41,626 bases of DNA from Candidatus Acidiferrum sp. (GCA_035500035.1 DATJXP010000294.1:1-41626); one strand, 5' to 3'. Numbered from the stretch's first letter, positions 24,288 to 39,639 are shown. The notes: a model not told the origin generated them from the letters alone. Numbers and translations are program-made.

Positions 24288-25163
24288 TCAGGGAGTCATC
24301 GTCATCTGCAGGGTCAGCGGCTGGCCGTCCCGCAACAGCGAAAATGATACGTCAGTGGGGCGGTTCATCAAATTGTAGAGTTCCGGCAGGTTGGCCATGT
24401 CGGTGAGCGATATGCCGTTGACGGAAGTGAGGATGTCGTTCTGCTTGAAGCCGAGCTGCACGAATTCCTTCAGGCGCGGACCGGGCGACACGCGATAACC
24501 CAGCAGATGCGCGTTGCCGACAGCCGGCTCCACCGCGATGATCTCGGCCAAACGCGCGGCTGCCTTGCGGATCTGTTGCGGTGCCGCCTGCAGCAACGCG
24601 GCGGCTTGCGCCGCGGTCGGCGTTACGACGGCGGCGGCACGGTTGCCGGCTGCCGCTTTGTCCGTTGGTTGCGTTCTGTTCTTGTCCTTGTTGTACAGCC
24701 ACAGTACCTGCTCGATACCGTTGTTGCGGATCACGACATGATCGGCAGCCACGTCGCCCAACGTGACGTTGCCGCCGCCGGGCAGGCTGTCGCCGATGCG
24801 GTAACTGTGCTGACGGCCGCCACTAACGATCAGCGCGCGGCTGTTGCTCTTGGGCAACGCCAGCACCACTCCTTCAAGACCGAGATCGAGTTCGGTGGTG
24901 GCGAGATTGGCGAGCGCGGCGGCGCCGTTATCGTTGTGGTGGGCTCCGAACAACGCCAGTGTCTGTACCGCGGCCACGTCGACTGTGCGAGATGTGACCG
25001 GCGTCACATTGGCGCCGGCATCGGGTAGAGTGGCCAGCGTCGACCACTGATCCGCCGCCCACCACAGCCGCAACACCAGCGCTACCATCAGTACTGCCGC
25101 TGCCAATACCGGCAAATTGACGCTACCGGCAATGACCCGGCGCTGGCTGGTTTGAGCGTGCAT
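24288..25163 (-). CDS. gspC: Type II secretion protein C (PDZ domain)
   Basis: N-terminal TM (LPVLAAAVLMVALVLRLWW) and a C-terminal PDZ-like domain (GYRVSPGPRLKEFVQLGFKQNDILTSVNGISL). First gene of the cluster. Start is either the ATG at 25163 or the TTG at 25187. Confidence 0.8.
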   Translation of the reverse strand: MHAQTSQRRVIAGSVNLPVLAAAVLMVALVLRLWWAADQWSTLATLPDAGANVTPVTSRTVDVAAVQTLALFGAHHNDNGAAALANLATTELDLGLEGVVLALPKSNSRALIVSGGRQHSYRIGDSLPGGGNVTLGDVAADHVVIRNNGIEQVLWLYNKDKNRTQPTDKAAAGNRAAAVVTPTAAQAAALLQAAPQQIRKAAARLAEIIAVEPAVGNAHLLGYRVSPGPRLKEFVQLGFKQNDILTSVNGISLTDMANLPELYNLMNRPTDVSFSLLRDGQPLTLQMTMTP

Positions 25164-25284
25164 CAGGCTCGGCACGGATTTTTGCAATGACGATTACAAG
25201 GGTGCCGGCAGCTTACCACAGACCCGCGCCGTTACGGGCCGCGTTGGCAATGCCCGCGCCATTCAGGCTGCGTCCAGTTAAACG

Positions 25285-25314
25285 CTGACAGTGCAAGCGA
25301 CGTGTTTGTATAAT
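25285..25314 (+). promoter_or_regulatory. Strong sigma70-like promoter facing the kinase/STAS/mla genes
   Basis: -35 CTGACA (25285-25290), 18-nt spacer, perfect -10 TATAAT (25309-25314). This implies a leader of about 245 nt before the ATG at 25565. Confidence 0.5.
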
Positions 25315-25413
25315 CCCGCCCTGAACGTACGACTTGCCGGAATACGGCCAGCACCGCTCGCTTGCGGTTCAGCGCGGCATCTGATCACCAACGAGAGTTC
25401 GACTGTGATCGTG

Positions 25414-25482
25414 TGATTGATTAATTGATCGATTGTCTGATTGGTTAATTGGTTAATTGGTTAATTGACTGATTGATCGATG
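25414..25482. repeat. AT-rich repeat tract: TTGGTTAA x3 in tandem, flanked by TGATTGAT-type motifs
   Basis: tgattgattaattgatcgattgtctga-TTGGTTAA-TTGGTTAA-TTGGTTAA-ttgactgattgatcgatg. The tandem copies lie at 25441-25464. Composition contrasts sharply with the GC-rich surroundings. Confidence 0.9.
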
Positions 25483-25564
25483 CAACCGAACGACGCTGAG
25501 CATCAAGGTACCAATGACAGTTGCCTGTTCGTCACGCCACGAAGACCAGGAGCCCCTAGGGCTT

Positions 25565-26056
25565 ATGACAGGGGTTATGACAGCCACCCAGCAATTACTG
25601 GCCTGCCAGTTTCCAGCCTGCGCCGAAGAGATGGGCAGCGTGCGGCTGAAACTGCGCAAGGCGCTGGAACAACGCGGATTGGCGGAACCGGCTGTGAACG
25701 ATCTGGTGCTGGCGGTGGGCGAGGCCTGCATGAACATCATGCAACATGCCTATGGCCAGCAGGACAAGGGCGACATCGTGCTGGAGGTGGAAATGAAGGA
25801 AGAAATGAAGCAGGTGGAAACGACGAACGCAATGCGTCTCGCCGGCAACGGCAAGCCGTCGCGCCAGTTGGTGTTCCGGCTGACGGACTTCGCCCGGCAC
25901 AAGTCCAGCGCAGCGGAAATGAAGCCGCGTCCACTCGACGAGATTCGTCCCGGCGGCCTCGGCTGCCACATCATCAACCAGGTGATGGATGAAGTGGTGT
26001 TGCTGGACCGCGGCGGACAGAGCGGCAATGTGCTGGAACTGCGCAAGCGGGTGTAG
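25565..26056 (+). CDS. RsbW/SpoIIAB-like anti-sigma-factor-type serine kinase (GHKL ATPase)
   Basis: N-box GEACMNIMQHAY. The C-terminal block RPGGLGCHIINQVMDEV parallels the SpoIIAB G2/lid region. Size about 163 aa. Start is uncertain (ATG at 25514, 25565 or 25577). Confidence 0.75.
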   Translation: MTGVMTATQQLLACQFPACAEEMGSVRLKLRKALEQRGLAEPAVNDLVLAVGEACMNIMQHAYGQQDKGDIVLEVEMKEEMKQVETTNAMRLAGNGKPSRQLVFRLTDFARHKSSAAEMKPRPLDEIRPGGLGCHIINQVMDEVVLLDRGGQSGNVLELRKRV

Positions 26057-26061
26057 CGGCG

Positions 26062-26138
26062 GTTGGACGAGCAGTTGGACGAGCAGTTGGATGGACGAGC
26101 GGTTGATAGAGCAGAAAAGATGTCACACAAGTCACACA
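26062..26138. repeat. Two sets of short tandem repeats in the kinase-STAS spacer
   Basis: GTTGGACGAGCA (26062-26073), GTTGGACGAGCA (26074-26085), GTTGGAtgGACGAGCG (26086-26101) and GTTGAtAGAGCA (26102-26113). Then GTCACACA-a-GTCACACA (26122-26138). Confidence 0.9.
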
Positions 26139-26166
26139 GAACGTACAGGAGCGCCTGACGGCCTTT

Positions 26167-26496
26167 ATGGAATGCAACCTCAAATCGGAAGCGGGCTTTG
26201 ACCTGCTCGAACTTGCCGGCGAAGTCGATCTGCATTTTTCGCCCAAATTGCGCGAAACCGTGCTTGCTTCGCTCAAGAACGGCAAACCGTTGCTGATCGA
26301 CATGGGCAAGGTCAGCTACATCGACAGCTCCGGCATCGCGTCGCTGGTGGAAGGATTCCAGGCCGCGAAAACCGCCAAGCTGCAATACGGCCTGCTCGAC
26401 ATCAGCAAGACCGCGATGCAGGTGCTGACGCTGACGCGCCTCGACAAGATCTTCGAGCTGTATACCAGTCTCGACCAGTTCAAACTGAAGCTCTAA
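26167..26496 (+). CDS. STAS-domain protein (RsbV/SpoIIAA-like anti-sigma antagonist; possible MlaB equivalent)
   Basis: 109 aa with a conserved phospho-acceptor loop, VSYIDSSGIASLVEG. Its stop lies 14 nt upstream of mlaF. Confidence 0.85.
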   Translation: MECNLKSEAGFDLLELAGEVDLHFSPKLRETVLASLKNGKPLLIDMGKVSYIDSSGIASLVEGFQAAKTAKLQYGLLDISKTAMQVLTLTRLDKIFELYTSLDQFKLKL

Positions 26497-26510
26497 GGCC
26501 CGCCAACGAC

Positions 26511-27311
26511 ATGACGCCAGACAATCCCAACGCCATCACGATACGCGATCTCGTGGTGGACTACGGCCCGCGCCGCATCCTGCACAGCGTCAACCTCGAC
26601 ATCCCGCTCGGCCAGATCATGGTGATCATGGGCCAAAGCGGTGCCGGCAAAAGTACGCTGCTGCGCTGCATCCTGGGCCTGAAAAAACCGTCCAGCGGCA
26701 GCATCCACATGCTGGGCACCGACATCGCCACCGCCACCCGCAAGGAAATCTACGACGTGCGCAAGCACATCGGCGTCGCCTTCCAGGGCGGCGCATTGTT
26801 CTCGTCGATGACAGTGGCGGAGAACATCCAGTTGCCGCTGCGCGAGCACACCAACCTCGACGACAAGACCATCGAGATCATGACCCGCATCAAGCTGGAC
26901 ATGGTCGATATGCTGCCGGCCGAACACCTGATGCCGGCCGAGTTGTCTGGCGGCATGACCAAACGCGCGGCGCTGGCGCGCGCGATCATCATGGATCCGA
27001 AACTGCTGTTCTTCGACGAACCCTCGTCCGGTCTCGATCCGAGCACCGCGGCCGAACTCGACCAGTTGATCATCACGCTGAAGAACTCGATGGGCATGAC
27101 CATCGTCGTGGTGACGCACGAGCTCGACAGCATCTTCAAGATCGCCGACCACATCGCCGTGGTGCACCAGGGCAACATCCTGGAAACCGGCACGCCGCAG
27201 CAGATCACCGCCTCGACCAATCCGGAGATCCAGGGCCTGCTGAACCGCAAGCCGCGCGAAAACATCGTCGATGCCGACGCCCACCTGCGCCGCCTGACCG
27301 GAGGATTCTAG
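26511..27311 (+). CDS. mlaF: Phospholipid ABC transporter ATP-binding protein MlaF
   Basis: Walker A GQSGAGKSTLL, signature LSGGMTKRAALARA and Walker B LLFFDEPSSGLD. Context with mlaE and mlaD. Confidence 0.9.
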   Translation: MTPDNPNAITIRDLVVDYGPRRILHSVNLDIPLGQIMVIMGQSGAGKSTLLRCILGLKKPSSGSIHMLGTDIATATRKEIYDVRKHIGVAFQGGALFSSMTVAENIQLPLREHTNLDDKTIEIMTRIKLDMVDMLPAEHLMPAELSGGMTKRAALARAIIMDPKLLFFDEPSSGLDPSTAAELDQLIITLKNSMGMTIVVVTHELDSIFKIADHIAVVHQGNILETGTPQQITASTNPEIQGLLNRKPRENIVDADAHLRRLTGGF

Positions 27312-28099
27312 TGATCAAGTCCATCGAAAACCTCGGCGCCTGGGTGCTCGACGTGCTGGACCAGACCGGCCGCACGTCGTTGATGCTGCTGGAAGCGATC
27401 TGGGAAATCCTGCAGCCGCCGTACCGTTTTTATCCGATCGTGCGGCAGATGTACTTCATCGGCGCCCGCTCGCTGACGCTGATCATCTTCTCCGGTATCA
27501 CCATCGGCATGGTGCTGGGCCTGCAGTTCTACAACATCCTGCAGCGCTTCGGCTCGGTCGATCTGCTCGGCTCCGGCGTGGCGCTCGGCGTGATCCGCGA
27601 ACTCGGCCCGGTGATGACGGCATTGATGGTGGTCGGCCGCGCCGGCTCGTCGATCACCGCCGAACTCGGCATCATGCGCATCACCGAACAGGTCGATGCG
27701 CTCGAGTGCATGGCGGTGTCGCCCGACAAATTCCTGATCGCGCCCAAGGTGGTGGCCGGCATCCTGTCGGTGCCGCTGCTGACGATGGTGTTCGACTTCG
27801 TCGCGCTGTACGGCGGCTATTTCGTCGGCGTCATCATGTTCGGCGTGGCACCCGGCTCGTACATGAACGGCATGATCGACGCCATCGAGATGCCGGACGT
27901 CCGGCTCGGCCTGGTCAAATCGCTGATCTTCGGCGGCCTGGTCACCCTGATCGCCTGTTCGCGCGGTTTCTACATCCACCTGACGCGTGCCGGTTCCCAG
28001 GGTGCCGAAGGCGTCAGCTCGGCCACCACTGATGCGGTAGTGCTGTCGTCGATCGGCGTGCTGTTTGCCGACTTCCTGATCGGCGCGCTGATGAAATGA
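27311..28099 (+). CDS. mlaE: Phospholipid ABC transporter permease MlaE
   Basis: The block ELGPVMTALMVVGRAGSSITAELGIMRITEQVDALE is characteristic of MlaE. GTG start overlaps the mlaF TAG (TAGTG), and GGAGGA lies upstream. Confidence 0.9.
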   Translation: MIKSIENLGAWVLDVLDQTGRTSLMLLEAIWEILQPPYRFYPIVRQMYFIGARSLTLIIFSGITIGMVLGLQFYNILQRFGSVDLLGSGVALGVIRELGPVMTALMVVGRAGSSITAELGIMRITEQVDALECMAVSPDKFLIAPKVVAGILSVPLLTMVFDFVALYGGYFVGVIMFGVAPGSYMNGMIDAIEMPDVRLGLVKSLIFGGLVTLIACSRGFYIHLTRAGSQGAEGVSSATTDAVVLSSIGVLFADFLIGALMK

Positions 28100-28118
28100 T
28101 TTCTGCAAGGAGAACCCA

Positions 28119-28595
28119 ATGAAAAAATTCAACGTGCAACTGATCACCGGCCTGTTCGTGCTGCTGGGCATTGCCACCTTCACGTACCAGGCGGTGACGC
28201 TCGGCGGCGCCAGCATCACCGAACAGAAGGGCTACACGCTGAAGGCCAAGTTCAACTCGATCTCGGGGCTGCGCGTCGGCAGCGTGGTGGAAGCGGCCGG
28301 CGTGCGCGTCGGTACCGTCAGCGGCATCAAGTTCGATCCCGACAATTACCAGGCCATGGTCACGCTGCGCATCAACGACGGCGTGCCGGTGCAGCAGGAC
28401 GCCATCGCCTCCGTGCGCACGCAAGGCATCATCGGCGAGAAGTTCATCAAGCTGAGCGCTGGCGGGTTTCCTGAACTGCTGAAGGACGGCGACGAAATCA
28501 CGTCGACCGAATCGGCGTTGAGCCTGGAAGAACTGGTCAGCAAATACATATTCGACAGCGGCAGCAACGACAAGAAAGACAAAGAAAAGCAATAG
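28119..28595 (+). CDS. mlaD: MCE-domain protein MlaD
   Basis: N-terminal TM plus an MCE domain (ISGLRVGSVVEAAGVRVGTVSGIKFD). AAGGAGA RBS. Confidence 0.9.
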   Translation: MKKFNVQLITGLFVLLGIATFTYQAVTLGGASITEQKGYTLKAKFNSISGLRVGSVVEAAGVRVGTVSGIKFDPDNYQAMVTLRINDGVPVQQDAIASVRTQGIIGEKFIKLSAGGFPELLKDGDEITSTESALSLEELVSKYIFDSGSNDKKDKEKQ

Positions 28596-28645
28596 TACGA
28601 ACGTGTCTGCGAGGGGATTTCATCCACCGACAAAGAATCCGTGCC

Positions 28646-29404
28646 ATGAACCTGAAATCACATCTCCAAACCCTGACTCTCGTCACCCTCACCGCCGTTA
28701 CTTTGGCCTTGCCAAGCCATAGCGCCCTAGGCGCGGAGGCTGGTGGCGCCCAAGGCCAGGACGAATTCTTCGACTTCGATGCCGCCAGCAAGGATTCGGG
28801 GACGCCCACGATCTCCGACCCGCTGGAAAAGCTCAACCGCGCCACGTTCGTGTTCAACGACAAGGCCTACCGCTACGTGATGAAACCGGTGGCAAAGGGC
28901 TTGCGGGTATTTCCGGAACCGGTGCGTACCGGCTTCTCCAATTTCTTCAGCAACCTCGGTGCGCCGGTATCGGCCATCAGCGCCTTGCTGCAGGGCGATC
29001 CGCGCAACGCCGGCACCGAACTCGGCCGCTTCGTGCTCAACACCACGGTTGGCCTGCTCGGTTTTCTCGATCCCGCCACCGATGCCGGTCTGGTGCAGGA
29101 CGAAGAAGATCTGGGCCAGACGATGGCAAGGTGGGGCGTAGGCCATGGCTTCTACCTGGTGGTGCCGCTCTATGGCTCCAGCAGCTTGCGCGATTTCACC
29201 GGCACGCTGGCGACCGGCGCCATCAACCCGTTGTTCCAGAACCTCGACACCGGTGAAGTCATCGGCATCACCGCCGCGTCCGCCGAAGTGAGCCTGTCGC
29301 TCGACAAGGACACCTATGAAGCCTTCTACGATGGTGCTATCGACCCCTACGTGTTCTTCCGCAGCGCCTGGGTGCAGAACCGCGCCGGCAAGGTCAAGCA
29401 ATGA
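28646..29404 (+). CDS. mlaA: MlaA/VacJ family outer-membrane protein (no lipobox cysteine)
   Basis: DPLEKLNRATFVFNDKAYRYVMKPVAKG is the VacJ signature region. The N-terminal signal peptide ends ALPSHSALGA-EA, with no Cys. Confidence 0.85.
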   Translation: MNLKSHLQTLTLVTLTAVTLALPSHSALGAEAGGAQGQDEFFDFDAASKDSGTPTISDPLEKLNRATFVFNDKAYRYVMKPVAKGLRVFPEPVRTGFSNFFSNLGAPVSAISALLQGDPRNAGTELGRFVLNTTVGLLGFLDPATDAGLVQDEEDLGQTMARWGVGHGFYLVVPLYGSSSLRDFTGTLATGAINPLFQNLDTGEVIGITAASAEVSLSLDKDTYEAFYDGAIDPYVFFRSAWVQNRAGKVKQ

Positions 29405-29491
29405 CCGCGGTTCAGCCCTGGTTGCGGGACTGACGTTATAATCCACGCCGCCACGGCCAGTCTGCGCGTGGCTCACGCCCAAGGAGCTCCC

Positions 29492-30139
29492 ATGTCGATC
29501 CGCTTCCCGTCATTTGCCCGCACCCGCCACCTCGCGTCTGTCGGCCGCCGCCTGTTGCTCGCGTTCGCGCTGTTGCTGCCGCTGGCCGTTGCCGGTCTGG
29601 CCACTGCTGCCGATGCAGACGGCCCGGGCGCAGCCGTCAAAGTCACCGTGGAGAACATCCTCGCCATCCTGCGCAAACCCGGCTTCAAGTTCGAAACCGA
29701 CCGCCCGGCCATCAGCGCCGAAGTACGCAAGGCGTTCGATGACGTGGCGATGGCGCAGAGCGTGCTGTCCACCAACTGGAAAATGCTCAATCCCGACCAG
29801 CAGACCGAATTCAAGGGCCTGATGCTGCAGACCATCGAAAGCACCTACATCGGCCGCATCAAGGCCTACACCAACGAAACAGTGCAATACCGCAAGGAAG
29901 AGGTGAAAGGCTCGCTGGCCACCGTCGATACCGCCATCGTCACCAGCTCCAAGGAAATCCCGGTCAACTACAAGCTGCGCAAGCGCTCGGACGGCTGGTT
30001 CGTCTATGACGTCGAAGTCGAGAACGTCAGCATGGTCAGCACCTACCGCGACAGCTACCGCGATATTTTTGCCAAAGAGGGCATCGCCGGCCTGCTGAAA
30101 CAGATGAAAGCCAAGATCGCCGAGCTGGAAACCAAATAA
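29492..30139 (+). CDS. mlaC: Periplasmic phospholipid-binding protein MlaC (Ttg2D/toluene-tolerance family)
   Basis: Signal peptide LLLAFALLLPLAVAGLATAADA, size about 215 aa, and position after mlaD/mlaA. AAGGAG lies 5 nt upstream of the ATG at 29492. Confidence 0.8.
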   Translation: MSIRFPSFARTRHLASVGRRLLLAFALLLPLAVAGLATAADADGPGAAVKVTVENILAILRKPGFKFETDRPAISAEVRKAFDDVAMAQSVLSTNWKMLNPDQQTEFKGLMLQTIESTYIGRIKAYTNETVQYRKEEVKGSLATVDTAIVTSSKEIPVNYKLRKRSDGWFVYDVEVENVSMVSTYRDSYRDIFAKEGIAGLLKQMKAKIAELETK

Positions 30140-30318
30140 CGCACCAACCCCGTGCTTGCCCCTGCGGCGGCCACGGGAATTTGTGGCGGATTTCCACATT
30201 TTCACCGGTTGCCGAGCTTGCCCGGACGGCGTGTGCGCATGCTAAAATGCGCGCCGCTTTTTCCATCCCTTCCCGGTTTCACATAGCTGCAGCCCAAAGC
30301 GCACCAGACCTACCCGCC

Positions 30319-31128
30319 ATGGCCCAAGTTTTAAGCCTGAAAGAAATCCGTTCCAGCACCACCCTCAAAGGTGAAATAGCCAAACTCGAAGACGAGCGCG
30401 CCCAACTACAGGCGCAACTTGAGCGTGCGCGCCAGTTGGAAAAGAAACTGCAGGAAGACCTGCTCGAACAGAAAAAGGATTTCGAGCACCTGGAAAAACA
30501 ATTCGAGCACTTTGCCGGCATCGAAGCCGAGTACGAAGCGCTGCAGCAGGAAGTGCAGATGGAACGCCTCGAAAAACTGATCGACGGCGACAAGAAGGAC
30601 AACGTCCTCAACGGCCAGCTCAAGAAGCTGCGCGACGACCTCAAGGCCGCCACCGACGAACTGAAGGAGCTCAGGCAGATGGATCCCGAGCGCCTCAAAC
30701 GCCAGGCTGCCGACCTCAAGAAAAAAACCCAGCAGCAAGCCACCGACAACCAGGCGCTCAATACCGCGCTGGTCAAGGCGCGCAAGGATCTCAAGGACAC
30801 CACTACCGACAAGGAAAAGTTCGAAGGCGAACTGAAAGCCAGCCGCAACGGCACCGATTTCTTCTGGCAATCGGTGGATGGCGCCTGGGTGCTGTACGAG
30901 TGCAGCATCGTGCTGAAAGATCAGCAGGTTGACGATCCCGACAAATACAAACGCATCCGCTGCCTGCACACGCTGACCGGCATGAGCGCGCTGTCGAACG
31001 GCAAGGACGACAACGACAAGGCCCTCTGGCTCGGCACGTTGGAAATCCCCGACGATGTCACCGTCGAAGCCGGCAAGCGCCTGCTCAGCATCGCCGCCGA
31101 ACTGGAAGACGACGGCAGCGACAAGTAA
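30319..31128 (+). CDS. Hypothetical cytoplasmic protein: long Glu/Lys/Gln-rich coiled coil plus a small C-terminal globular domain
   Basis: About 190 aa of heptad-like sequence (KLEDERAQLQAQLERARQLEKKLQEDLLEQKKDFEHLEKQFEH...), then FFWQSVDGAWVLYECSIVLKD...IRCLHTLTG. No signal peptide or TM and no recognisable motif. I chose the ATG at 30319 because codons upstream have low GC3. Confidence 0.6.
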   Translation: MAQVLSLKEIRSSTTLKGEIAKLEDERAQLQAQLERARQLEKKLQEDLLEQKKDFEHLEKQFEHFAGIEAEYEALQQEVQMERLEKLIDGDKKDNVLNGQLKKLRDDLKAATDELKELRQMDPERLKRQAADLKKKTQQQATDNQALNTALVKARKDLKDTTTDKEKFEGELKASRNGTDFFWQSVDGAWVLYECSIVLKDQQVDDPDKYKRIRCLHTLTGMSALSNGKDDNDKALWLGTLEIPDDVTVEAGKRLLSIAAELEDDGSDK

Positions 31129-31256
31129 GCCGCTTTCCGAGCGCAGCCTTCCCTCCCACCGAACCCCGCCCGCCGTTCGCCGCGCAGGCCGGGTCAGCGC
31201 CGCATGAATGGGCTATCATTGCCCGATACCGCTGATCCTGCTGGCAATCCCCGCTC

Positions 31257-32549
31257 ATGCTCCTCGAAATGATCAGTACCGGCGAAGAAGTGTTGTCGGG
31301 ACAGATAGTCGATACCAATGCCGCCTGGTTCGCCGACAGCATGATGAATCTCGGCATCGAGCTGCAACGGCGCAGCACCGTCGGCGACCGCATGGACGAT
31401 CTGGTCGCAGTGTTTGGCGAACGCAGCCGCGCAGCCGATCTGATCCTCGTCAACGGTGGCCTCGGCCCGACCAGTGACGATCTCAGCGCCGCCGCCGCCG
31501 CGCGCGCCGCCGGCGTCGAACTGGTCGAACATCAAGGCTGGCGCACCCATCTCGATCAATGGTTCCGCAAACGCGGCCGCCCGATGGTGGCGAGCAATCT
31601 CAAGCAATGCCTGATCCCGTGCGGCGCCGTGTTGATCGACAACCCGTCCGGGTCCGCGCCGGGTTTCCGGCTCAAGCTCAACCGCGCCTGGCTGTTCTTC
31701 ACACCCGGCGTGCCGGCGGAATTCAAGCCGATGGTGAACGAGCAGTTCGTACCCTTCATGCAGCAGGAGTTCCGGCAAGACACCGCGACCCGCTTGCGCA
31801 AGCTGCTCACCTTCGGTCATGGCGAATCGCTGCTGGCGGAGCGCATCGATACGGTGCCAGTGCCTGCCGGCATCACGCTCGGTTACCGGCCGTCGCCGCC
31901 GCATGTCGAAATCAAGGTCTTCGCGCGCGGCGAAACCGCAATCGGCACGCTGGACGCTTATGTCGCCAGCCTGCAACGGCTGCTCGGCGATGCCGTCGTC
32001 TCCACCCGTTTTGCTTCGTTGACGGAGGAAGTCCATCACCTGCTGCTCGGCGGCAAGACGACGCTGGCCTTGGCCGAATCGTGCAGCGGCGGCATGCTGG
32101 CCAGCCAGCTGGTCGATTTCGCCGGTAGCTCGACCTACTTGCAGCACTCGGTGGTGGCCTATGCCAACGAAGCCAAGACGGCGTTATTGGGAGTTCCGGC
32201 TGCAACATTGCAAGCCCATGGCGCTGTCTCGCCCGAAACTGCACTGGCGATGGCAAGAGGCGCCAGAAACCGGCTCGACAGCGACTACGCGCTGGCCATC
32301 ACCGGCATCGCCGGGCCTGACGGCGGCAGCGACGACAAGCCGGTCGGCACCGTTGCCGTCGCCTTGTGCGATCGCCTGCAAAGCTGGGTACAGGTGCTGC
32401 AGTTGTCGCAACGTTCGCGCAACCTGGTCCGTACGATGAGCTGTGCCGTGGCGCTCGACATGCTGCGGCGCAGGCTGCTCGGCAGCGAACCGGTGGTGAC
32501 CTACTCGTTCCTGCCGGCCCGGCTCTCGTATCGCGAGGCCAACGGCTGA
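31257..32549 (+). CDS. cinA: CinA family protein (MoCF-binding domain fused to a PncC-type nicotinamide-nucleotide amidohydrolase)
   Basis: N-terminal [20 protein letters not shown]...[14 protein letters not shown] and C-terminal [14 protein letters not shown]. Confidence 0.85.
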
Positions 32550-32550
32550 C

Positions 32551-34509
32551 ATGACTTTTTCGATACGCTGGAAGCTGATCGTTTCCATCATCCTGCCGCT
32601 GCTGATCATTGCCGGAGTGGTGATGGGCTTCACGTTGCGCCGCGTTTACGATTCCGCCATCCGGACGATGCAGGACCAGCACCTGCGCGAGATCAGCCTG
32701 CTTGCCACCGGCATCGACAACGAACTCGACGCCGTGCGCGGCTCGGTCGAGGATTCGGCCCGTTTCCTTGCACTGCGGCCCACGCTCAACGGCGAAGCCG
32801 TGTTCAACCTGCTGAAGGACACCATGCGCCGCGACCCGGTGATCTACGGCGCCGCGTTTGCGTTCGAGCCGTTCGCGTGGCGCAACGATCTGCGTCTGTT
32901 CGCTCCCTACGTGTTCGACAAGGACATGAAACAGCTCGATCTCAGCACCGTACTCGGTGAATACCCCTCCGGCCGCGTCGATTGGTACCAACGCGTCAAG
33001 ACCGGCGGCCAACCAGTGTGGACCGAACCGTACCTCGACAGCGTCAACCGCAGCATGCCCATCGTCACCTACGCGGTGCCGATTCGCGCCGGCGGCACTT
33101 TTATCGGCGTTGCCACGCTGGACCTGCGGCTCGACCTGTTGAACCAGCGGCTCGCTGCGCGCATGACGCCGTCGCGTTACCTGTTGATGACCCCGAGCGG
33201 TCGCTTCCTCGCCCACTACGACAGCAGCATGATCCTGAATTCCGGCCTGAGCGATATGACGGCAGCGGTGGTGAATCCGCAATTCCAGCTCATCACCAAT
33301 CACATCATGGCCGGCGACACCGGCATGGGCGTCATCGACAACCTTTATCTCGACGGCGGCATCGAGCCCGGCAATTTGTGGATCAGCTACACATCCATTC
33401 TTGCGTCGAACTGGCGGCTGGCAACCATCGCCTCCGAAAGCGACCTGATCGAGCCGGTGCGCGCCCAGATCGAAATCGCGCTGCTGGGCTTGAGCCTCAC
33501 CGTGCTGGCGATCTTCATCCTGGTATGGGTGATGAGCACGCGTCTGACGCGCCCGATCAAGACACTGGAAGCCGCGGTGTCGGAAGTGGCGCAGGGCCAT
33601 CTCGACACCCACATCGAGAACATCCGCTCCACCGACGAACTGGGCCGTCTCAGTCTCGGCTTCAACCGCATGTTGAAAAACCTGAAGAAGCAGATCGAGC
33701 TGCAAAGCCAGCAGGAAACCGCGCAGAAGCTGGTCGAGCGCGAACTGCAGATGGCGCGCGAAACGCAGAAATCGTTGCTGCCCACCGACTTCCCGCCGTT
33801 TCCGACCCGCAAGGAATTCGAACTGCACGCAGTCAACCAGGCCGCCTACCACGTGGCGGGCGACTTCTTCGATTTCTTCCTGGTCAATCCGCAGACGCTG
33901 ATCTTCGTGATCGCCGACGTCAGCGGCAAGGGCATGTCGGCGGCGCTGGTGATGGCGGTGACGCGCACCATCGTGCGCGACCTGGCGCAAAGCGGTCGCC
34001 CGCCCGGCGAAATCCTGCGCGAAACCAATGACCGCCTGCGCGACGGCCAGCGCGCCGGTGCCTTCGTCACGTTGTTTCTCGGCAGTTACGACATCGCCAC
34101 CGGCAAAGTGACCTATGCCAACGGCGGCCACCTGCCGCCCTATCTGATCAGCCAGGGCGGCAAGGTTGGCAATGTCGGCGACGCCACCGGCACCATTGTC
34201 GGCATGCTCGAAGGCATGGACTACCGCACCGCCGAATTCACGCTGAATCCCGGCGACACGCTGCTGCTGTACACCGATGGTTTTCCCGAAGCGCGTTCGC
34301 CCGCCGGCGAGTTCTACGGCATTCCGCGCATCAAGGCGTTCCTGCAAAAGCATGCAAAGGACAATTGTCTCGAGTTGTGCGAGGCCGCCATTGCCGAAAT
34401 CGCCAACTATCAGAATCACAACCTGTCGGACGACATCACGCTGCTCGCGCTCAAACGCTCGGCGAACAGCGGTGGTTTTCTGGCGGGGCTGCTGCGACCC
34501 GGAACGTGA
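32551..34509 (+). CDS. Membrane sensor phosphatase: TM, periplasmic Cache-like domain, TM, HAMP, PP2C (SpoIIE/RsbU family)
   Basis: TM1 WKLIVSIILPLLIIAGVVMGF, a periplasmic region of about 270 aa, and TM2 IALLGLSLTVLAIFILVWVM. HAMP (RPIKTLEAAVSEVAQGHLD...LGRLSLGFNRMLKNL). PP2C motifs GDFFDFF, FVIADVSGKGMSAAL and LLLYTDGFPEA. The ATG lies 1 nt after the cinA TGA. Confidence 0.85.
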   Translation: MTFSIRWKLIVSIILPLLIIAGVVMGFTLRRVYDSAIRTMQDQHLREISLLATGIDNELDAVRGSVEDSARFLALRPTLNGEAVFNLLKDTMRRDPVIYGAAFAFEPFAWRNDLRLFAPYVFDKDMKQLDLSTVLGEYPSGRVDWYQRVKTGGQPVWTEPYLDSVNRSMPIVTYAVPIRAGGTFIGVATLDLRLDLLNQRLAARMTPSRYLLMTPSGRFLAHYDSSMILNSGLSDMTAAVVNPQFQLITNHIMAGDTGMGVIDNLYLDGGIEPGNLWISYTSILASNWRLATIASESDLIEPVRAQIEIALLGLSLTVLAIFILVWVMSTRLTRPIKTLEAAVSEVAQGHLDTHIENIRSTDELGRLSLGFNRMLKNLKKQIELQSQQETAQKLVERELQMARETQKSLLPTDFPPFPTRKEFELHAVNQAAYHVAGDFFDFFLVNPQTLIFVIADVSGKGMSAALVMAVTRTIVRDLAQSGRPPGEILRETNDRLRDGQRAGAFVTLFLGSYDIATGKVTYANGGHLPPYLISQGGKVGNVGDATGTIVGMLEGMDYRTAEFTLNPGDTLLLYTDGFPEARSPAGEFYGIPRIKAFLQKHAKDNCLELCEAAIAEIANYQNHNLSDDITLLALKRSANSGGFLAGLLRPGT

Positions 34510-34730
34510 GCCCGCCTGCTTACCGCGCACTGCATGTAAGGATCGCGTAATGCTCCGGGAATCCTGCCTGACTTGGCTCGCTCGAGGCCTGATTTCGCGG
34601 TGGATATTTGCACTCTCGGTCGTAGTGGCATAGGCTTCCGCCGCTGTCCGATCAGGGCGCCGTGCAACCGCGCCGGCAGCTCAGGCCCCAGGCCACGGGC
34701 GCAACAATTACAAGGCTAGCTGAGACCCCT

Positions 34731-36107
34731 ATGCTCGATGAATCCCAGTTGTTGAAGGATGAAGCACAGTACTGTTCGTTCGGCGATACCGTGCATTACG
34801 CCGATCCGCCGAAAATTTTCACCGGCTGCGAAGGCAGCTACCTGTACGACGCCCAGGGCACTCAGTTTCTCGATCTGCAGATGTGGTATTCGGCCGTCAA
34901 TTTCGGCTACCGCAACGAGCGGCTCAACAATGTGGTCAAGCAGCAACTGGACACGCTGCCGCAAGTCGCCAGCCAGTACCTGCATCCGAGCAAGATCGAA
35001 CTCGCCAAAATCATCGCGCAGGATGCCGAGCGCAAGTTCGGCATGCAGGGGCGCGTGCACTTCAACGTCGGCGGCTCGCAATCGATCGAGGATTCGCTGA
35101 AGCTGGTGCGCAATGCCTGCAACGGCAAGAGCCTGATGTTTGCCTTCGAAGGCGGCTACCACGGCCGCACGCTCGGCGCCTCGGCGATCACGTCAAGCTA
35201 TCGCTATCGCCGCCGCTACGGCCATTTCGGCGACCGCGCGCTGTTCGTGCCGTTTCCTTATCCGTTCCGCCGCCCCAAACACATGACGGCCGAAGAATAC
35301 GGCGAGTGGTGCGTCAACAATTTCGCCCGCATGTTCGAGACCGAATACAACGGCGTGTGGGATCCGAAAGCCAATCAATCCGAATACGCCGCGTTCTACA
35401 TCGAACCGATCCAGGGCACCGGCGGCTACGTGGTACCGCCGAAGAATTTCTTCCCCGGGTTGAAAAAAGTGCTGGACCAATACGGCATCCTGCTGGTGGT
35501 CGACGAAATCCAGATGGGTTTCTACCGCACCGGCAAGCTGTGGTCGATCGAACACTTCGGCATCAAACCCGACGTGCTGGTGTTCGCGAAGGCACTGACC
35601 AACGGTCTCAATCCACTGGCGGGATTGTGGGCACGCGAAGAGCTGATCAACCCGACCATTTTCCCGCCCGGCTCCACGCATTCGACGTTCGCGTCCAATC
35701 CGATCGGCACCGCGCTCGGCCTCGAAGTGATGAAGATGACGCGCGAGACAGATTACGAAACGATGGTGATGAAAAAAGGCGAACACTTCCTCGCCGGGCT
35801 CAAGGACCTGCAGAAACGCCACAAGGAAATCGGCGATGTCGATGGCTTGGGGCTGGCGTTGCGTGCCGAAATCTGCACCGACGACGGCTTCACGCCCAAC
35901 CGTGCGTTGCTGGATCGCATGATGAACCTCGGCCTGCAAGCGGCGCTCGACTGGAAAGGCAAGAAGATGGGACTCGTGCTCGATGTCGGCGGGTATTACA
36001 AAAACGTGATCACCTTCGCTCCGTCGTTGCACATCAGCGGCGAAGAGATCGATCAGGGCATCGCCCTGCTCGACCAGTTGTTGACGCTCGCCAAGTCCGG
36101 TAAATAG
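34731..36107 (+). CDS. Class-III (omega-type) PLP-dependent aminotransferase
   Basis: LVVDEIQMGFYRTGKLWSIEHFGIKPDVLVFAKALTNG (PLP-Lys in FAKAL) and FEGGYHGRTLGA. ATG at 34731 has no clear SD; the track ORF begins at 34662. Confidence 0.85.
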   Translation: MLDESQLLKDEAQYCSFGDTVHYADPPKIFTGCEGSYLYDAQGTQFLDLQMWYSAVNFGYRNERLNNVVKQQLDTLPQVASQYLHPSKIELAKIIAQDAERKFGMQGRVHFNVGGSQSIEDSLKLVRNACNGKSLMFAFEGGYHGRTLGASAITSSYRYRRRYGHFGDRALFVPFPYPFRRPKHMTAEEYGEWCVNNFARMFETEYNGVWDPKANQSEYAAFYIEPIQGTGGYVVPPKNFFPGLKKVLDQYGILLVVDEIQMGFYRTGKLWSIEHFGIKPDVLVFAKALTNGLNPLAGLWAREELINPTIFPPGSTHSTFASNPIGTALGLEVMKMTRETDYETMVMKKGEHFLAGLKDLQKRHKEIGDVDGLGLALRAEICTDDGFTPNRALLDRMMNLGLQAALDWKGKKMGLVLDVGGYYKNVITFAPSLHISGEEIDQGIALLDQLLTLAKSGK

Positions 36108-36161
36108 CGCTTGGCGACCGGCACCGACGGGGTGGTGGCGCCTGGCCGCGACCGGACCCCT

Positions 36162-37250
36162 ATGCCCCTTGCCAATCGTTTTGCGAACCAATTGGAGCCC
36201 GCTGCGCTGATCGACGCCTTCCTGGCGCATCCGCCGCAGGATTTCACGGCCTGGCAGACGCAGGGCGGCATCCTGGCCTTCGCCGCCGACTTCTACCTGC
36301 TCACCACGCTCGACGACGCACTGCGTCGCCGCATCGACGCGCTGCCGGGACGCTGGTGGCGTCGCTTGCTCAGTCCGCGTACCTGCTTCATCGGCACCAC
36401 GGTATCGGAATATTGCCTGCTACCGCCGGCCACGCCACCGGCGGGAATCATCGCGGACATCAAGCAACAGCTGGCTCCGCGTTATCCGTTCCTGATCATC
36501 AAGGATCTGCCGCAACAGTCGCCGTTGCTGACGCAGGCAGACAACGTGCGGGCTGCTGCGCTGATGGGCGCTGCCCGCGCCGCCGGCTTCGTCATCGTCG
36601 ATGGCCAGGCGCTGGCCTATGTGCCGATCGATTTCGCCAGCATCGACGACTACCTGGCACGACTGTCGAACCAGCGTCGCAAAGATCTCCGCCGCAAACT
36701 CCGGATGCAGGACCGTATCGCCGTCAGCGTGGTCCGCAGCGGCGATGCGCTGTTTGCCGACGATGCCGTCATCGACGAATACTACCGACTCTACACCGCC
36801 GTGTTCGCGCAGAGCGATACCCATTTCGACCTGCTGACCCGCCCGTTCTTCGCCTCGGTGCTGCGCGATGCGGCTGCCGGCGGCGTGGTATTTCTTTATC
36901 ATTGCGACGGCGAACTGATCGGCTTCAACCTCTGCTTCATCGAAGGCGGCAACATGATCGACAAATACGTCGGCTTTCGTTATCCGGTCGCGCGCGAGCT
37001 CAATCTGTATTTCGTCAGCTGGTTCGTCAATCTCGCCTATGCGCTCGAACATGGCCTCAAGCACTACGTGGCCGGCTGGAGCGATCCCGAAGTCAAACGT
37101 GCGCTCGGCGCCAGTTTTACCTTTACCTGTCACGCGGTGCATGTCCGCAATCCCTTGCTGCGAGCCTTGCTGAAGCCGTTCGCTTCCCTGTTCGAGCGCG
37201 ATGCCCACGTCATCGGCCACGCTGACGCCGGAGCCGGCGGCGATGATTGA
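36162..37250 (+). CDS. FemAB-like / BioF2-like GNAT-fold acyl- or aminoacyl-transferase (family assignment tentative)
   Basis: About 362 aa. The C-terminal half (VVFLYHCDGELIGFNLCFIEGGNMIDKYVGFRYPVARELNLYFVSWFVNLAYALEHGLKHY) resembles FemAB-like duplicated-GNAT proteins from memory. Not verifiable without a search. Confidence 0.5.
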   Translation: MPLANRFANQLEPAALIDAFLAHPPQDFTAWQTQGGILAFAADFYLLTTLDDALRRRIDALPGRWWRRLLSPRTCFIGTTVSEYCLLPPATPPAGIIADIKQQLAPRYPFLIIKDLPQQSPLLTQADNVRAAALMGAARAAGFVIVDGQALAYVPIDFASIDDYLARLSNQRRKDLRRKLRMQDRIAVSVVRSGDALFADDAVIDEYYRLYTAVFAQSDTHFDLLTRPFFASVLRDAAAGGVVFLYHCDGELIGFNLCFIEGGNMIDKYVGFRYPVARELNLYFVSWFVNLAYALEHGLKHYVAGWSDPEVKRALGASFTFTCHAVHVRNPLLRALLKPFASLFERDAHVIGHADAGAGGDD

Positions 37251-38145
37251 CGCGCTCCAACCGCTGGTGCTTGATTTCGACCGATCGGTCAGCAAACCGG
37301 AATCGGCCACCCGCATCGACCTGCAGCATTGGCAGGAGAGCGTGCGTTTTGGCTGCCCGCTTAAGGTCTATGAAAGATTCGTCAGGTATCTTGCCCCCCT
37401 GATGCCGGCGCGCCACGGCACCGTGTTGATGGGGAGCGGCGACTACCACCATGTCAGCCGTTTCCTGATCGAGCGCATTCGTACCGACCGACCCTTTGAC
37501 GTGATCGTGCTGGACAACCACCCGGACAACATGCGGTTTCCGTTCGGCATCCACTGCGGATCGTGGGTGCGGGGCGTTGCACTGCTACCGCAAGTGCGGC
37601 ACGTGCATGTGGTGGGCATCTGTTCGTCCGACATCGGCGCCCGCTCGGCGTGGAGCAATTACTGGTTGCCCCTGCTGCGCGGACGTTTGACTTATTGGTG
37701 TCTCGGCGTCGATGTGGGCTGGGCGCGGCGCGCAGGTCTCGGCAATGCCTTTCGTCGCTACGACGAACCCGATGCGCTGCTCCGTGAATTCATGGACGAA
37801 CGCGATGCAGTGCCGGTCTATCTGAGCATCGACAAGGACGTGTTCGCCGAAGATGTCGTCAGGACCAACTGGGATCAAGGTCGCCTTGCCGCCGGACACG
37901 CGCTGGCGGTGATCGAGTCACTGGCCGGACGCCTGATCGGCAGCGACATCACCGGCGAGGTATCGGTGTGGCGCTACCGCACCTGGTGGAAGCGTTGGCT
38001 CAGCGCACTCGACGATCAACCGGACATCGCTCCGGATCGGCTGGCGCAATGGCAAGAACCGCAGCAGCAACTCAATCTGCGCCTGCTCGACGCGCTGGCA
38101 CAGGCTACGCACAAAACCCTTGCTGCCCAAATGGAAAGACTGTAA
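37243..38145 (+). CDS. Arginase/deacetylase-fold metal-dependent hydrolase (divergent)
   Basis: Arginase-like motif series: GSGDYHHVS (cf. GGDHS), VLDNHPDN (cf. DAHxD), YLSIDKDVFAEDV (cf. SxDxDxxDP) and GSDITGEVS. The ATG overlaps the upstream stop (ATGATTGA). Confidence 0.6.
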   Translation: MIDALQPLVLDFDRSVSKPESATRIDLQHWQESVRFGCPLKVYERFVRYLAPLMPARHGTVLMGSGDYHHVSRFLIERIRTDRPFDVIVLDNHPDNMRFPFGIHCGSWVRGVALLPQVRHVHVVGICSSDIGARSAWSNYWLPLLRGRLTYWCLGVDVGWARRAGLGNAFRRYDEPDALLREFMDERDAVPVYLSIDKDVFAEDVVRTNWDQGRLAAGHALAVIESLAGRLIGSDITGEVSVWRYRTWWKRWLSALDDQPDIAPDRLAQWQEPQQQLNLRLLDALAQATHKTLAAQMERL

Positions 38146-38152
38146 ACAGAAC

Positions 38153-39382
38153 ATGATGGCTAAAGAGAGAATCGTAGTAAGCGGTCTGGCCGTACTCACG
38201 GCGCAGGGCAACAATGTCAACCAGTTCTGGGAGGCGATGCTGTCCGCGCGCTCCGGCATCGGCGCCATCAGCCGCTTCGACGCCAGCCAATATCGCACCC
38301 GCATCGCCGCCGAACTCAAAACCGATCTCAACGAACTGCTCGGTTATTCCGTCAGCAAGTATTCGATCAACACCCAGTTTGCCCTGGCCTGTGCCGAAGA
38401 GCTGGTGCGCGATGCCGGCATCGCCGACGGTGGCGGCCTCGACAAGCAACGCATCGGCATCTGTCTCGGCACCGGCCTTGGCGGCATCTATTACGCGGAA
38501 GAAGGATTGACCCGCCTGCTGGAGCAAGGCCCTGGCCGCGTCAATCCGATGTGCGTGCCCTACGTCGATCCCAACTCGATGATCAACCAGATCGCCAGCA
38601 AGTGGGGCTTTCTCGGCCAGCAGTTCACCGTCGCCAGCGCCTGCTCGTCCGCGGCCAACGCCATGGGAGTGGCACTCGACATGATACGCAGCGGCCGCGC
38701 CGATGCCGTACTGACCGGCGGCGTCGAATGCACCGTGCAACCGCTGATGCTGGCCGGCTTCGACCGCTTGCGCGCGATGTCGCCCGGCAATGACGATCCG
38801 CAGAATGCCTGCCGCCCGTTCGCCAAGGATCGCGATGGCTTCGTGCTGGGCGAGGGCGCGGCACTGCTGTTCATCGAGAAGGAGTCGAGCGCTCGCGCCC
38901 GCGGCGCCACTGTGTACGCCGAGCTGGCCGGTTTCGGCTGCACTGGCGGCGGTTATCACGCGGTGATGCCGGTGCCGGACGGCAGCGACTCGGTACGCTG
39001 CATGCAGATTGCACTGGCCGATGCCAGCGCCACCGCCGCCGAAATCGATCTCATCAATCCCCACGGCACCGGCACCCAACTCAACGACGCCGCCGAATAC
39101 AAGGCCATGCTGCAGGTATTCGGCGACCGCATCCGGGAAATTCCAATAGCCCCCACCAAGCAACTGACCGGCCATTTGCTTGGCGCCGCTGGTGCGATAG
39201 AGGCCGCTCATGTGGTTAAATCGCTGCACGAAGGGGTACTGACCCCTTTCAAGCCGATCAACTGCGAGTTTGATCTCAACATCAACTTCGGTGGACCGAT
39301 ACGGCAGGCGCCGCATTGCGCCCTGTCCAGCTCGTTTGGATTCGGCAACAACAATGCGTCGTTAGTGTTCCGGAAGCTGTAA
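38153..39382 (+). CDS. Beta-ketoacyl-ACP synthase, FabF/FabB-type elongating KS (Cys-His-His)
   Basis: Active-site Cys in ASACSSAANAM, with His residues in NPHGTGT and TGHLLGAAG. About 409 aa. Confidence 0.9.
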   Translation: MMAKERIVVSGLAVLTAQGNNVNQFWEAMLSARSGIGAISRFDASQYRTRIAAELKTDLNELLGYSVSKYSINTQFALACAEELVRDAGIADGGGLDKQRIGICLGTGLGGIYYAEEGLTRLLEQGPGRVNPMCVPYVDPNSMINQIASKWGFLGQQFTVASACSSAANAMGVALDMIRSGRADAVLTGGVECTVQPLMLAGFDRLRAMSPGNDDPQNACRPFAKDRDGFVLGEGAALLFIEKESSARARGATVYAELAGFGCTGGGYHAVMPVPDGSDSVRCMQIALADASATAAEIDLINPHGTGTQLNDAAEYKAMLQVFGDRIREIPIAPTKQLTGHLLGAAGAIEAAHVVKSLHEGVLTPFKPINCEFDLNINFGGPIRQAPHCALSSSFGFGNNNASLVFRKL

Positions 39383-39639
39383 TGAAGATCTCGAAAGCCG
39401 AATTCATCAAGATTCTGAAGGCCAATGCAGACCGTTTCGACCGCCAGGATATCGCCGAGACGGACAAGCTGGCCGACTTGGGCGTCGATTCCATCGGCTT
39501 CGTGATGACCATCTATGCCATCGAAGAAAAGCTGAAGGTGAAGATACAGGATGCTGATCTCGCCTCGCTGACCCCCGACAGCCATGTGTCGGATTTCGTC
39601 CGGGTGCTGGCCGGTCTCGGCATCGAAATCGAACTATAA
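39382..39639 (+). CDS. Acyl carrier protein (dedicated, cluster-associated)
   Basis: 85 aa with the phosphopantetheine attachment motif LGVDSIGFV. The ATG overlaps the KS stop (TAATG). Confidence 0.85.
   Translation: MKISKAEFIKILKANADRFDRQDIAETDKLADLGVDSIGFVMTIYAIEEKLKVKIQDADLASLTPDSHVSDFVRVLAGLGIEIEL

Follow-up and report, generated by a model that had tools for sequence, protein, structure and literature searches.

Kinase, STAS and mla genes of the window

The stretch of DNA considered here, 41,626 nucleotides from Candidatus Acidiferrum sp. (GCA_035500035.1, DATJXP010000294.1:1-41626), is called the window at its full length, and all genes located in it from 25.2 to 34.5 kb are on the + strand. 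Among them, as read from the window with Pfam assignments, a gene for an RsbW-type serine kinase is followed by a gene for a STAS protein and then by mlaF, mlaE, mlaD, mlaA and mlaC, which encode the Mla lipid transporter. Since the kinase–STAS pairing recurs beside Mla, the cassette resembles a device, not described so far, for turning a membrane-lipid pump on and off. The features of this region are as follows.

25285–25314, + strand: sigma-70-like promoter match (CTGACA-18-TATAAT, 11/12 consensus match), candidate promoter of kinase-STAS-mlaFEDAC
25577–26056, + strand: GHKL serine kinase of the RsbW/SpoIIAB type, 159 aa (PF13581, HATPase_c_2)
26167–26496, + strand: anti-sigma-antagonist type of STAS protein with a single domain, 109 aa (PF01740, TIGR00377)
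26326–26328, + strand: codon AGC of Ser54 (YIDS54SG), the residue predicted to accept the phosphate, N-terminal in helix alpha2, placed by alignment
26511–27311, + strand: mlaF, ABC ATPase (PF00005)
27311–28099, + strand: mlaE, permease (PF02405, E 1.6e-72; TIGR00056 above cut-off)
28119–28595, + strand: mlaD, single MCE domain, 158 aa (PF02470; TIGR04430 'OM_asym_MlaD', 148 bits at a cut-off of 135)
28646–29404, + strand: mlaA, outer-membrane lipoprotein of the VacJ type (PF04333, E 3e-61)
29468–30139, + strand: mlaC, periplasmic lipid-binding protein (PF05494, E 6.7e-38)
30233–30262, + strand: terminator-like GC hairpin with a T-run, candidate end of the transcription unit (pattern match alone)

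The promoter match, situated approximately 260 nt 5' of the kinase start, is the only one found from this site to mlaC. It was recognized by consensus alone, and promoter-like matches over the region are no more numerous than in shuffled sequence. The hairpin lies about 95 nt past the mlaC stop, and together the two signals bracket kinase-STAS-mlaFEDAC as a candidate transcription unit. Positions 25000–34700 contain no RNA family of Rfam. A preliminary description of the same DNA, made from its sequence, had placed the kinase and STAS genes about 110 nt apart and had reported a 109-aa STAS protein with YIDSSG, whose stop lies 14 nt before mlaF; the gaps were indeed found to be 110 and 14 nt. 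Upstream of the cassette, on the opposite strand, an operon of the type II secretion system (T2SS) is located.

Two repeats were noticed in the non-coding parts of the cassette. The AT-rich tandem repeat ATTGATTA at 25416–25477 (approximately 7.8 copies of an 8-nt unit, which also reads as a 24-nt period) sits in the leader of about 260 nt that runs from the promoter-like site to the start of the kinase, and is unusual for a region with 61% GC. As a part of the system it was rejected and left out, because related loci do not conserve it 5' of the kinase. The second is a perfect 12-nt tandem repeat, GTTGGACGAGCA, present in 2.5 copies at 26062–26091, directly after the kinase stop in the spacer between kinase and STAS.

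The open reading frame (ORF) of the kinase ends at 26056, as had been described, and has its longest start at 25514. The start proposed for it earlier, 25565, has to be shifted: homologues and the public gene call begin with MTATQ, so that 25577 is the likely one. Both sequence blocks by which the kinase had been recognized, the GHKL N-box GEACMNIMQHAY and the SpoIIAB-like C-terminal block RPGGLGCHIINQVMDEV, were found in this frame. It matches PF13581 with E 1.6e-21 (77 bits at a cut-off of 27.4), and the profile of its family retrieves from the PDB RsbW of B. subtilis (6m36_A, 2e-15) and SpoIIAB (about 1e-6). Motifs GEACMN, TDFA and GGLG align with those of RsbW and SpoIIAB, the G1 box being devoid of the glycines. 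The family, for which at least 210 homologues were found and which has 45 invariant columns in an alignment of 25 sequences, conserves Glu/Asn of the N-box, Asp of G1 and GGLG of G2. The AlphaFold2 (AF2) model with a predicted local distance difference test (pLDDT) value of 80.5 is nearest in fold to RsbW (TMt 0.80) and SpoIIAB. Scores against the NCBIfam equivalog models stay below their cut-offs, amounting to 63 vs 145 bits for RsbW (NF003144) and to 27.6 vs 135 bits for SpoIIAB. At residues ~70–95 the kinase has a loop insertion of approximately 20–30 residues, EMKEEMKQVETTNAMRLAGNGKPSRQ, which is shared with the closest relatives only and is modeled with low pLDDT.

The STAS protein passes the cut-off of TIGR00377 'anti-sigma factor antagonist' (63.6 bits, cut-off 53.45), matches PF01740 with E 2e-15 and remains below the equivalog cut-off of SpoIIAA (35 vs 114.75 bits). 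Its sequence matches in the PDB are TM1442, RsbV and SpoIIAA. The AF2 model (pLDDT 95.3) has the full topology of SpoIIAA, including strand beta5 (97–99) and helix alpha4 (102–108), and is best superposed on RsbV from the RsbV/RsbW complex (6m36_B; TMq 0.85, TMt 0.92, root-mean-square deviation 1.2 Å), SpoIIAA being also near; for MlaB from E. coli and P. aeruginosa TMq values of 0.58–0.72 were obtained. BLASTP against E. coli MlaB gave 33% identity over 45 residues. Ser54 aligns with Ser58 of SpoIIAA, which is its phospho-serine, and with Thr52 of E. coli MlaB; the SpoIIAA and MlaB reference sequences of this alignment agree with the tool alignments over all stretches that they share. Among 62 diverse family members collected by an independent HMMER search, Ser54 is conserved in at least 90% and Asp53 is invariant. 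Judging by sequences and models, the kinase and the STAS protein are, as molecules, genuine representatives of the kinases and substrates that make up partner switches.

The transporter genes named in the preliminary description after mlaF, i.e. mlaE with its start overlapping the mlaF stop (TAGTG), mlaD, mlaA and mlaC, were all recognized by Pfam. The best NCBIfam match of mlaF is MlaF PRK11831, and in the PDB it is closest to MlaF of A. baumannii, P. aeruginosa and E. coli. In its product the unusual LSGGM signature is retained, and there is a C-terminal extension, LLNRKPRExxVDxDAHLRRL, conserved across the related loci, including those with the second transporter layout described below. MlaF, MlaA and MlaC do not reach the NCBIfam equivalog cut-offs, yet these models are their best or near-best matches. 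For MlaC the best one is hopanoid-associated HpnM (82 bits at a cut-off of 160), and the E. coli MlaC model gives 37 bits; the transported lipid may differ from that of the enterobacterial system. Just as had been stated before, no STAS gene follows mlaC; the next gene encodes a coiled-coil protein. The single-domain STAS protein encoded 14 nt 5' of mlaF is the product of the sole STAS gene found in the mla operon, and Pfam scans over about 40 ORFs revealed no second STAS gene in the whole window.

Recurrence of the cassette and its phosphatases

Scanning of genomes with the kinase alignment as a query gave 34 genuine loci, all from uncultured Gammaproteobacteria (Pseudomonadales, Pseudohongiellaceae kind), with kinase identities of 33–67%. 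The order kinase, STAS, mlaF or mlaE is preserved in every one of the 32 loci whose contig continues, and the median gap from STAS to mlaF is 11 nt. The upstream neighbours of the kinase vary, being represented by T2SS genes, a DUF1592/DUF1552 pair or others. A further hit (L035; letters L and P mark here our loci and proteins) was discarded as a 40-residue N-box match without any other gene of the cassette. The scan of metagenomes was seeded on the STAS motif and yielded at least 587 related stretches, the best 80 of which, most similar to the window STAS, were analysed with hidden Markov models (HMMs) built from the genome loci. Conservation of the DSSG motif in this sample is circular, because the loci were selected through it. 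MlaE (44 loci) or MlaF (10 loci) starts no further than 400 nt downstream of STAS in 54 of the 62 loci with enough sequence; the kinase domain is directly upstream of STAS in 58 loci out of 60, and PP2C is found further upstream in 34 out of 39. Being kept in 32/32 genome loci and in 54/62 metagenome loci, the linkage of kinase, STAS and transporter is not a matter of chance, and the cassette, whose kinase–STAS pairing recurs in well over a hundred loci of other genomes and metagenomes, is widespread and not unique to this organism.

The transporter genes that follow this pairing have two layouts of the MCE type. Along with mlaFEDAC there is a second, Mpc-like one (mlaE-F-D-pqiC), where kinase and STAS genes, preceded by GAF- or HDOD-PP2C, are followed by genes for MlaE, an ABC ATPase, a long MlaD (300–350 aa) and a PqiC-like lipoprotein. 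It was registered in two loci of the genome scan and in 6 of the 7 distant kinase homologues that were looked up, for instance in Endothiovibrio diazotrophicus. In the Solemya velum gill symbiont GAF-PP2C and kinase are one protein, and the genes for STAS, MlaE, ABC ATPase, MlaD and the PqiC-like protein come next, the entire set adjoining lptF/lptG. The STAS proteins from the two layouts belong to a single family, in which the motif YIDSSGIASLVEG is nearly invariant.

Fusions were found at several joints of the cassette. Sensor, PP2C and kinase are combined in single polypeptides of 715 aa (HDOD-PP2C-HATPase_c_2) and of 563 and 592 aa (GAF-PP2C-HATPase_c_2), thus tying phosphatase and kinase to one substrate. 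Kinase and STAS are fused in P0245. In the contig of L123 a PP2C-kinase fusion is followed by a 386-aa STAS-MlaE fusion (P0353) and then by an ABC ATPase; P0353 carries, in frame with MlaE, a complete STAS domain of this family that is 41% identical to the window STAS and has YIDSSG intact. Another protein classified by Pfam in the same way, P0236, was rejected, because the C-terminus of its STAS is replaced by unrelated residues, as is typical for a frameshift between adjacent genes. The linkage is kept, all in all, over two transporter layouts, three sensor types of the phosphatase and gene fusions. Proteins of ~830–845 aa (P0195, P0254, P0296 and P0299) were also noticed with a C-terminal STAS 39–46% identical to that of the window; in P0195 and P0254, the two that were scanned, it stands after a TLC/MFS-like transporter region, which gives another case of STAS on a transporter.

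A sigma factor was found neither by Pfam in the ~40 ORFs of the window nor by phmmer with SigB and RpoE, in line with what had been stated for the 41.6 kb before. With the same phmmer queries no sigma gene was detected beside the cassette in 123 loci (1.19 Mb), apart from a single marginal match in L104. Assignment of the cassette to sigma-B or sigma-F modules was rejected on the lack of a sigma gene in the window and on equivalog scores below the cut-offs.

The preliminary description had not listed a phosphatase. One candidate gene was found 3' of the cassette:

32551–34509, + strand: membrane dCache-HAMP-PP2C (SpoIIE-type) serine phosphatase, 652 aa (PF07228, E 5e-55; PF22673/PF02743; PF00672)

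Its translation contains intact PP2C motifs GDFFDF, DVSGKG, TDG and DDITLL, and its best NCBIfam match is SiaA, with 75 bits, far below the cut-off. Located 6 kb 3' of the STAS gene, this is the only PP2C found in the window and the best candidate for the phosphatase of STAS-P, although its membership in the system is what we infer. Sensor domains of PP2C vary among the loci (GAF, HDOD, dCache). The dCache-HAMP-PP2C gene is present downstream in 18 relatives, and an intact GAF-PP2C gene stands directly 5' of the kinase in 17, its product being 42–44% identical to GAF-PP2C of the Mpc-like loci. Five further loci (L002 at 9334–9980, L019, L022, L028 and L031) contain just 5' of the kinase only remnants of GAF-PP2C, i.e. 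fragments in different frames with no intact ORF. In the window and its closest relatives this gene is lost entirely, and dCache-HAMP-PP2C remains the sole local PP2C. The degraded copies capture an ongoing loss of GAF-PP2C within the clade of the window. Because the gene is intact in 17 relatives, has left remnants in five and is lost in the window, the ancestral cassette is best read as GAF-PP2C/kinase/STAS. All loci that have no upstream GAF-PP2C and enough downstream flank keep dCache-HAMP-PP2C, and among loci informative on both sides there is none without both PP2C genes.

Two genes are situated between mlaC and the phosphatase gene:

30319–31128, + strand: coiled-coil protein with a small C-terminal globular part (start probably ATG 30319)
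31257–32549, + strand: CinA homologue, the stop of which abuts the PP2C start

Their order, the coiled-coil gene and then CinA, is kept between mlaC and PP2C in most relatives (about 20 loci). The operon itself is interrupted in L008, where ~3.2 kb of extra sequence (13873–17105) are inserted between mlaA and mlaC in otherwise conserved surroundings. Directly 3' of PP2C, at 34662–40943, genes were found for a class-III aminotransferase, a FemAB-like/GNAT protein, a 314-aa protein, a beta-ketoacyl synthase and a small PP-binding carrier, together with a DegT-type aminotransferase on the opposite strand; by its composition this cluster looks like one for lipid or amino-lipid modification. On the other side of the window the 'planctomycete-type' pair of DUF1592/1588/1585/1587/1595 and then DUF1552 genes occupies positions 8922–12656 in a gammaproteobacterial context. 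In L002 and L011 this pair stands directly 5' of GAF-PP2C/kinase, and in the window a 618-aa ORF and the whole T2SS cluster come between the pair and the kinase. A 519-aa protein encoded at 7468–9027 consists almost entirely of ankyrin repeats, uncommon in free-living bacteria.

A proposed switch on the transporter and its rivals

The interpretation that we hold to be reasonably probable is that of an Mla transporter with an RsbV-type STAS protein as the counterpart of MlaB, where STAS docks on MlaF, the kinase phosphorylates Ser54 and PP2C resets the system. In this scheme STAS would be the functional equivalent of MlaB, co-transcribed with a dedicated serine kinase of the RsbW type. Its unphosphorylated form would use the helical face to dock on the MlaF helical subdomain and, like MlaB in E. 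coli, would help the ATPase to assemble and to work. The kinase would bind the same face of STAS and phosphorylate Ser54 at the N-terminus of alpha2; STAS-P would no longer bind MlaF and transport would be turned down. On a trigger perceived by its sensor, PP2C would reset the switch, the predicted enzyme being dCache-HAMP-PP2C in the window and GAF- or HDOD-PP2C, encoded directly 5' of the kinase, in the relatives. The output would then be an ABC lipid transporter and not a sigma factor. STAS-MlaF binding, phosphorylation, polarity with the P-form 'off', the phosphatase used in this lineage and the signal are all steps that we infer, and the polarity could be the reverse.

The supposition made in the preliminary description, that STAS is an MlaB equivalent in a kinase-toggled partner switch on Mla, gains support from comparative evidence. 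The median spacing to mlaF/mlaE is 11 nt, the cassette precedes a second MCE transporter in distant Gammaproteobacteria, STAS-MlaE fusions are known from Brucella and L123, no sigma gene was found in 1.19 Mb, and Ser54 aligns with Thr52 of MlaB.

Several observations weigh against this scheme. The STAS protein scores 19.1 bits against the MlaB model NF033618 with its cut-off of 90, and no MlaB chain appeared among its PDB sequence matches at E ≤ 1. Its model possesses beta5 and alpha4, which MlaB, a minimal STAS fold of four strands and three helices, lacks (Kolich 2020, PMC7367683). By sequence and predicted fold it is a classical anti-sigma antagonist, outside the MlaB family as now defined, and filing it as MlaB was rejected on both the HMM score (19 vs 90 bits) and the fold. 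The candidate phosphatase gene is 2.4 kb off, past the terminator-like site and two other genes, and in three loci (L013, L017 and L023) no dCache-PP2C was found over the next ~10 kb downstream; the flank of L008 is too short to show it. The complementary loss of the two PP2C genes is not significant (hypergeometric p ~0.1) and concerns phylogenetically related loci; with such small numbers and loci that are not independent, this pattern is only suggestive. The STAS-MlaE fusion of L123 comes from a single 3.9-kb contig, where loss of the stop codon by a sequencing error is possible. Finally, the cassette sometimes precedes unrelated genes (L104) or, in four loci, a CHASE2-adenylate/guanylate cyclase of ~750 aa encoded after PP2C/kinase/STAS:

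L037, 8004–10202: CHASE2-adenylate/guanylate cyclase
L103, 2650–4902: CHASE2-adenylate/guanylate cyclase
L116, 6406–8655: CHASE2-adenylate/guanylate cyclase
L122, 2963–5212: CHASE2-adenylate/guanylate cyclase

With these five loci the cassette is not exclusive to Mla. The gene order suggests the cyclase as its second output and fits a modular regulator, STAS acting directly on the protein encoded next door. In this connection one can formulate a broader statement, to which we would give even chances: a sensor-PP2C, an RsbW-type kinase and a DSSG STAS protein may constitute a direct post-translational gate on Mla and Mpc MCE transporters by phosphorylating their MlaB-like subunit, with occasional rewiring to CHASE2 cyclases.

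The best surviving alternative, which we regard as unlikely, is a classical anti-sigma module. The kinase would sequester a sigma factor encoded elsewhere and STAS would serve only as its antagonist, not as a subunit of the transporter; the pair would adjoin mla by virtue of a shared envelope-stress response, or mla would belong to the regulon. Best matches in sequence and structure to RsbV/RsbW and SpoIIAA/SpoIIAB speak for it, as does public annotation with its anti-sigma-B antagonist and RsbW, and some MCE transporters work without MlaB, such as actinobacterial Mce and chloroplast TGD. Canonical systems, however, have the sigma gene in the same operon (rsbV-rsbW-sigB, spoIIAA-AB-AC), and here the window and 123 loci offered only the marginal match mentioned above. 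It is also difficult to reconcile with such a module that the STAS stop is at a median distance of 11 nt from mlaF, that the same linkage is seen with two transporter architectures at a kinase identity of 33%, that STAS-MlaE fusions exist and that the mla operon has no other STAS gene.

Even less credit can be given to a version in which MlaF or MlaFE is bound and inhibited directly by the kinase as an 'anti-MlaF', and unphosphorylated STAS captures the kinase with no need to touch the transporter. It predicts the same gene content and synteny as the switch operated by STAS, its logic is identical to that of RsbW and sigma B, and the high conservation of the kinase family (see the invariant columns above) fits more than one binding partner. 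Nevertheless, in the only systems studied the partner of MlaF is the STAS protein MlaB, STAS and not the kinase was found fused to MlaE, the kinase is fused instead to the phosphatase, and the gene adjoining mlaF/mlaE is always that of STAS. That STAS is a constitutive MlaB-like structural subunit, with kinase and phosphatase acting elsewhere and adjacency reflecting inherited gene order, is highly improbable: vertical inheritance could account for synteny within the clade of the window (MlaF identity 68–88%) and E. coli MlaB keeps Thr at the equivalent site without a known kinase, but the trio persists at far greater divergence and in a different operon order, the acceptor Ser with its DSSG loop is nearly invariant, the catalytic motifs of the kinase are intact, PP2C-kinase fusions are encoded immediately 5' of STAS, and in P0245 the kinase is fused to STAS.

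Comparison with known systems

Mla and other MCE transporters maintain the barrier of the outer membrane and affect tolerance to antibiotics. The genes discussed here are annotated in public databases as 'STAS domain-containing protein', 'ATP-binding protein', 'anti-sigma B factor antagonist' and 'RsbW'. In the literature searched, with most subscription journals outside of it, neither a kinase or phosphatase for an MlaB-like protein nor a partner switch on an ABC/MCE transporter was found, which agrees with the earlier belief that such a switch on Mla had not been described. A cassette where kinase, sensor-phosphatase and acceptor serine are encoded beside the transporter is a natural test system for phosphoregulation of MlaB, and among its hosts Endothiovibrio diazotrophicus and the Solemya velum gill symbiont are organisms with a name. 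If the proposed scheme is true, partner switching would reach beyond transcription and control an ABC ATPase directly; it would be the first such switch with an ABC transporter as output, and the phosphoregulation of MlaB hypothesised from the E. coli structure would be realised in nature. Periplasmic (dCache) and cytoplasmic (GAF, HDOD) sensing would in this case be linked to lipid homeostasis of the envelope, and hundreds of gene pairs without a sigma factor, labelled 'anti-sigma B antagonist / RsbW' in databases, would have to be re-annotated.

With the modules of B. subtilis, RsbU/RsbP-RsbV-RsbW-sigma B and SpoIIE-SpoIIAA-SpoIIAB-sigma F, the cassette has three protein families in common: PP2C, serine kinases of the GHKL type and STAS proteins carrying DSSG. 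In the relatives that possess both GAF-PP2C and dCache-PP2C, two phosphatases may feed one STAS, in parallel to RsbU and RsbP. Unlike these modules, it has no associated sigma gene, its downstream partner is an ABC transporter of the MCE family, and the kinase and STAS of the window are below the equivalog cut-offs of RsbW and SpoIIAA. Partner switches with non-sigma or unknown outputs exist in other Gram-negative bacteria, namely HsbR-HsbA and SiaABCD of P. aeruginosa, BtrU/V/W of Bordetella and RsbU/V/W of Chlamydia. Rv1364c is a fused kinase/phosphatase, and its RsbU and RsbW domains are those of PDB entry 3ke6, found among the structure matches here. The non-sigma switches resemble the system under study in having a sensor-linked PP2C with HAMP and periplasmic domains. 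In V. fischeri the output effector is the unphosphorylated STAS protein SypA, and SypE is a fused kinase/phosphatase (PMC8256260). The proposed switch would be similar to SypA in that unphosphorylated STAS is itself the effector. It differs from SypE-SypA and from the systems of P. aeruginosa, Bordetella and Chlamydia in that the proposed target is an ABC lipid transporter, namely its ATPase; action on a transporter is not reported for any of them, and a review of single-domain STAS proteins makes no mention of Mla or ABC (PMC8256260).

The second layout, with MlaE, ABC ATPase, long MlaD and a PqiC-like protein, is like the Mpc system of Brucella abortus (MpcEFDA, PMC12436622). MpcE is an MlaE homologue with an N-terminal STAS domain 'homologous to the MlaB protein' (PMC12436622), and this place at the N-terminus of MlaE is exactly that of the free STAS gene in the kinase-linked operons. 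The word 'kinase' was not found in the searched text of the Mpc paper (PMC12436622). In contrast to the fused domain of Brucella, STAS in the loci collected here is usually separate, has a DSSG loop and is preceded by kinase and PP2C genes, and the window itself has the classical Mla layout.

The closest term of comparison is MlaFEDB of E. coli, where MlaB is a STAS accessory subunit of MlaF (Thong 2016, PMC5016091; Kolich 2020, PMC7367683). It binds the helical subdomain of MlaF through helices alpha1–alpha3 with Thr52 central to the interface, association of MlaF with the complex needs MlaB, the C-terminal extension of MlaF docks at the MlaF-MlaB groove, and the phosphomimetic substitution T52E weakens binding to MlaF (PMC7367683). 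According to that study, there is no evidence that MlaB is phosphorylated, and its phosphoregulation 'remains to be determined' (Kolich 2020, PMC7367683). The window shares with this system a single-domain STAS protein encoded in the mla operon, Ser or Thr at the N-terminus of alpha2 (Ser54 vs Thr52), MlaF with LSGGM and the C-terminal extension, and the full set of MlaF, E, D, A and C. Unlike E. coli MlaB, its STAS has the full length of the RsbV/SpoIIAA type, beta5/alpha4 included, fails the MlaB HMM and is encoded 5' of mlaF, whereas mlaB follows mlaC in E. coli. The window also has what E. coli lacks, a dedicated kinase and a candidate phosphatase. Thus, the component families, non-sigma partner switches and the MlaB-MlaF pairing are already known, and what the window adds to them is a cassette of the partner-switching kind whose output probably belongs to a new class.

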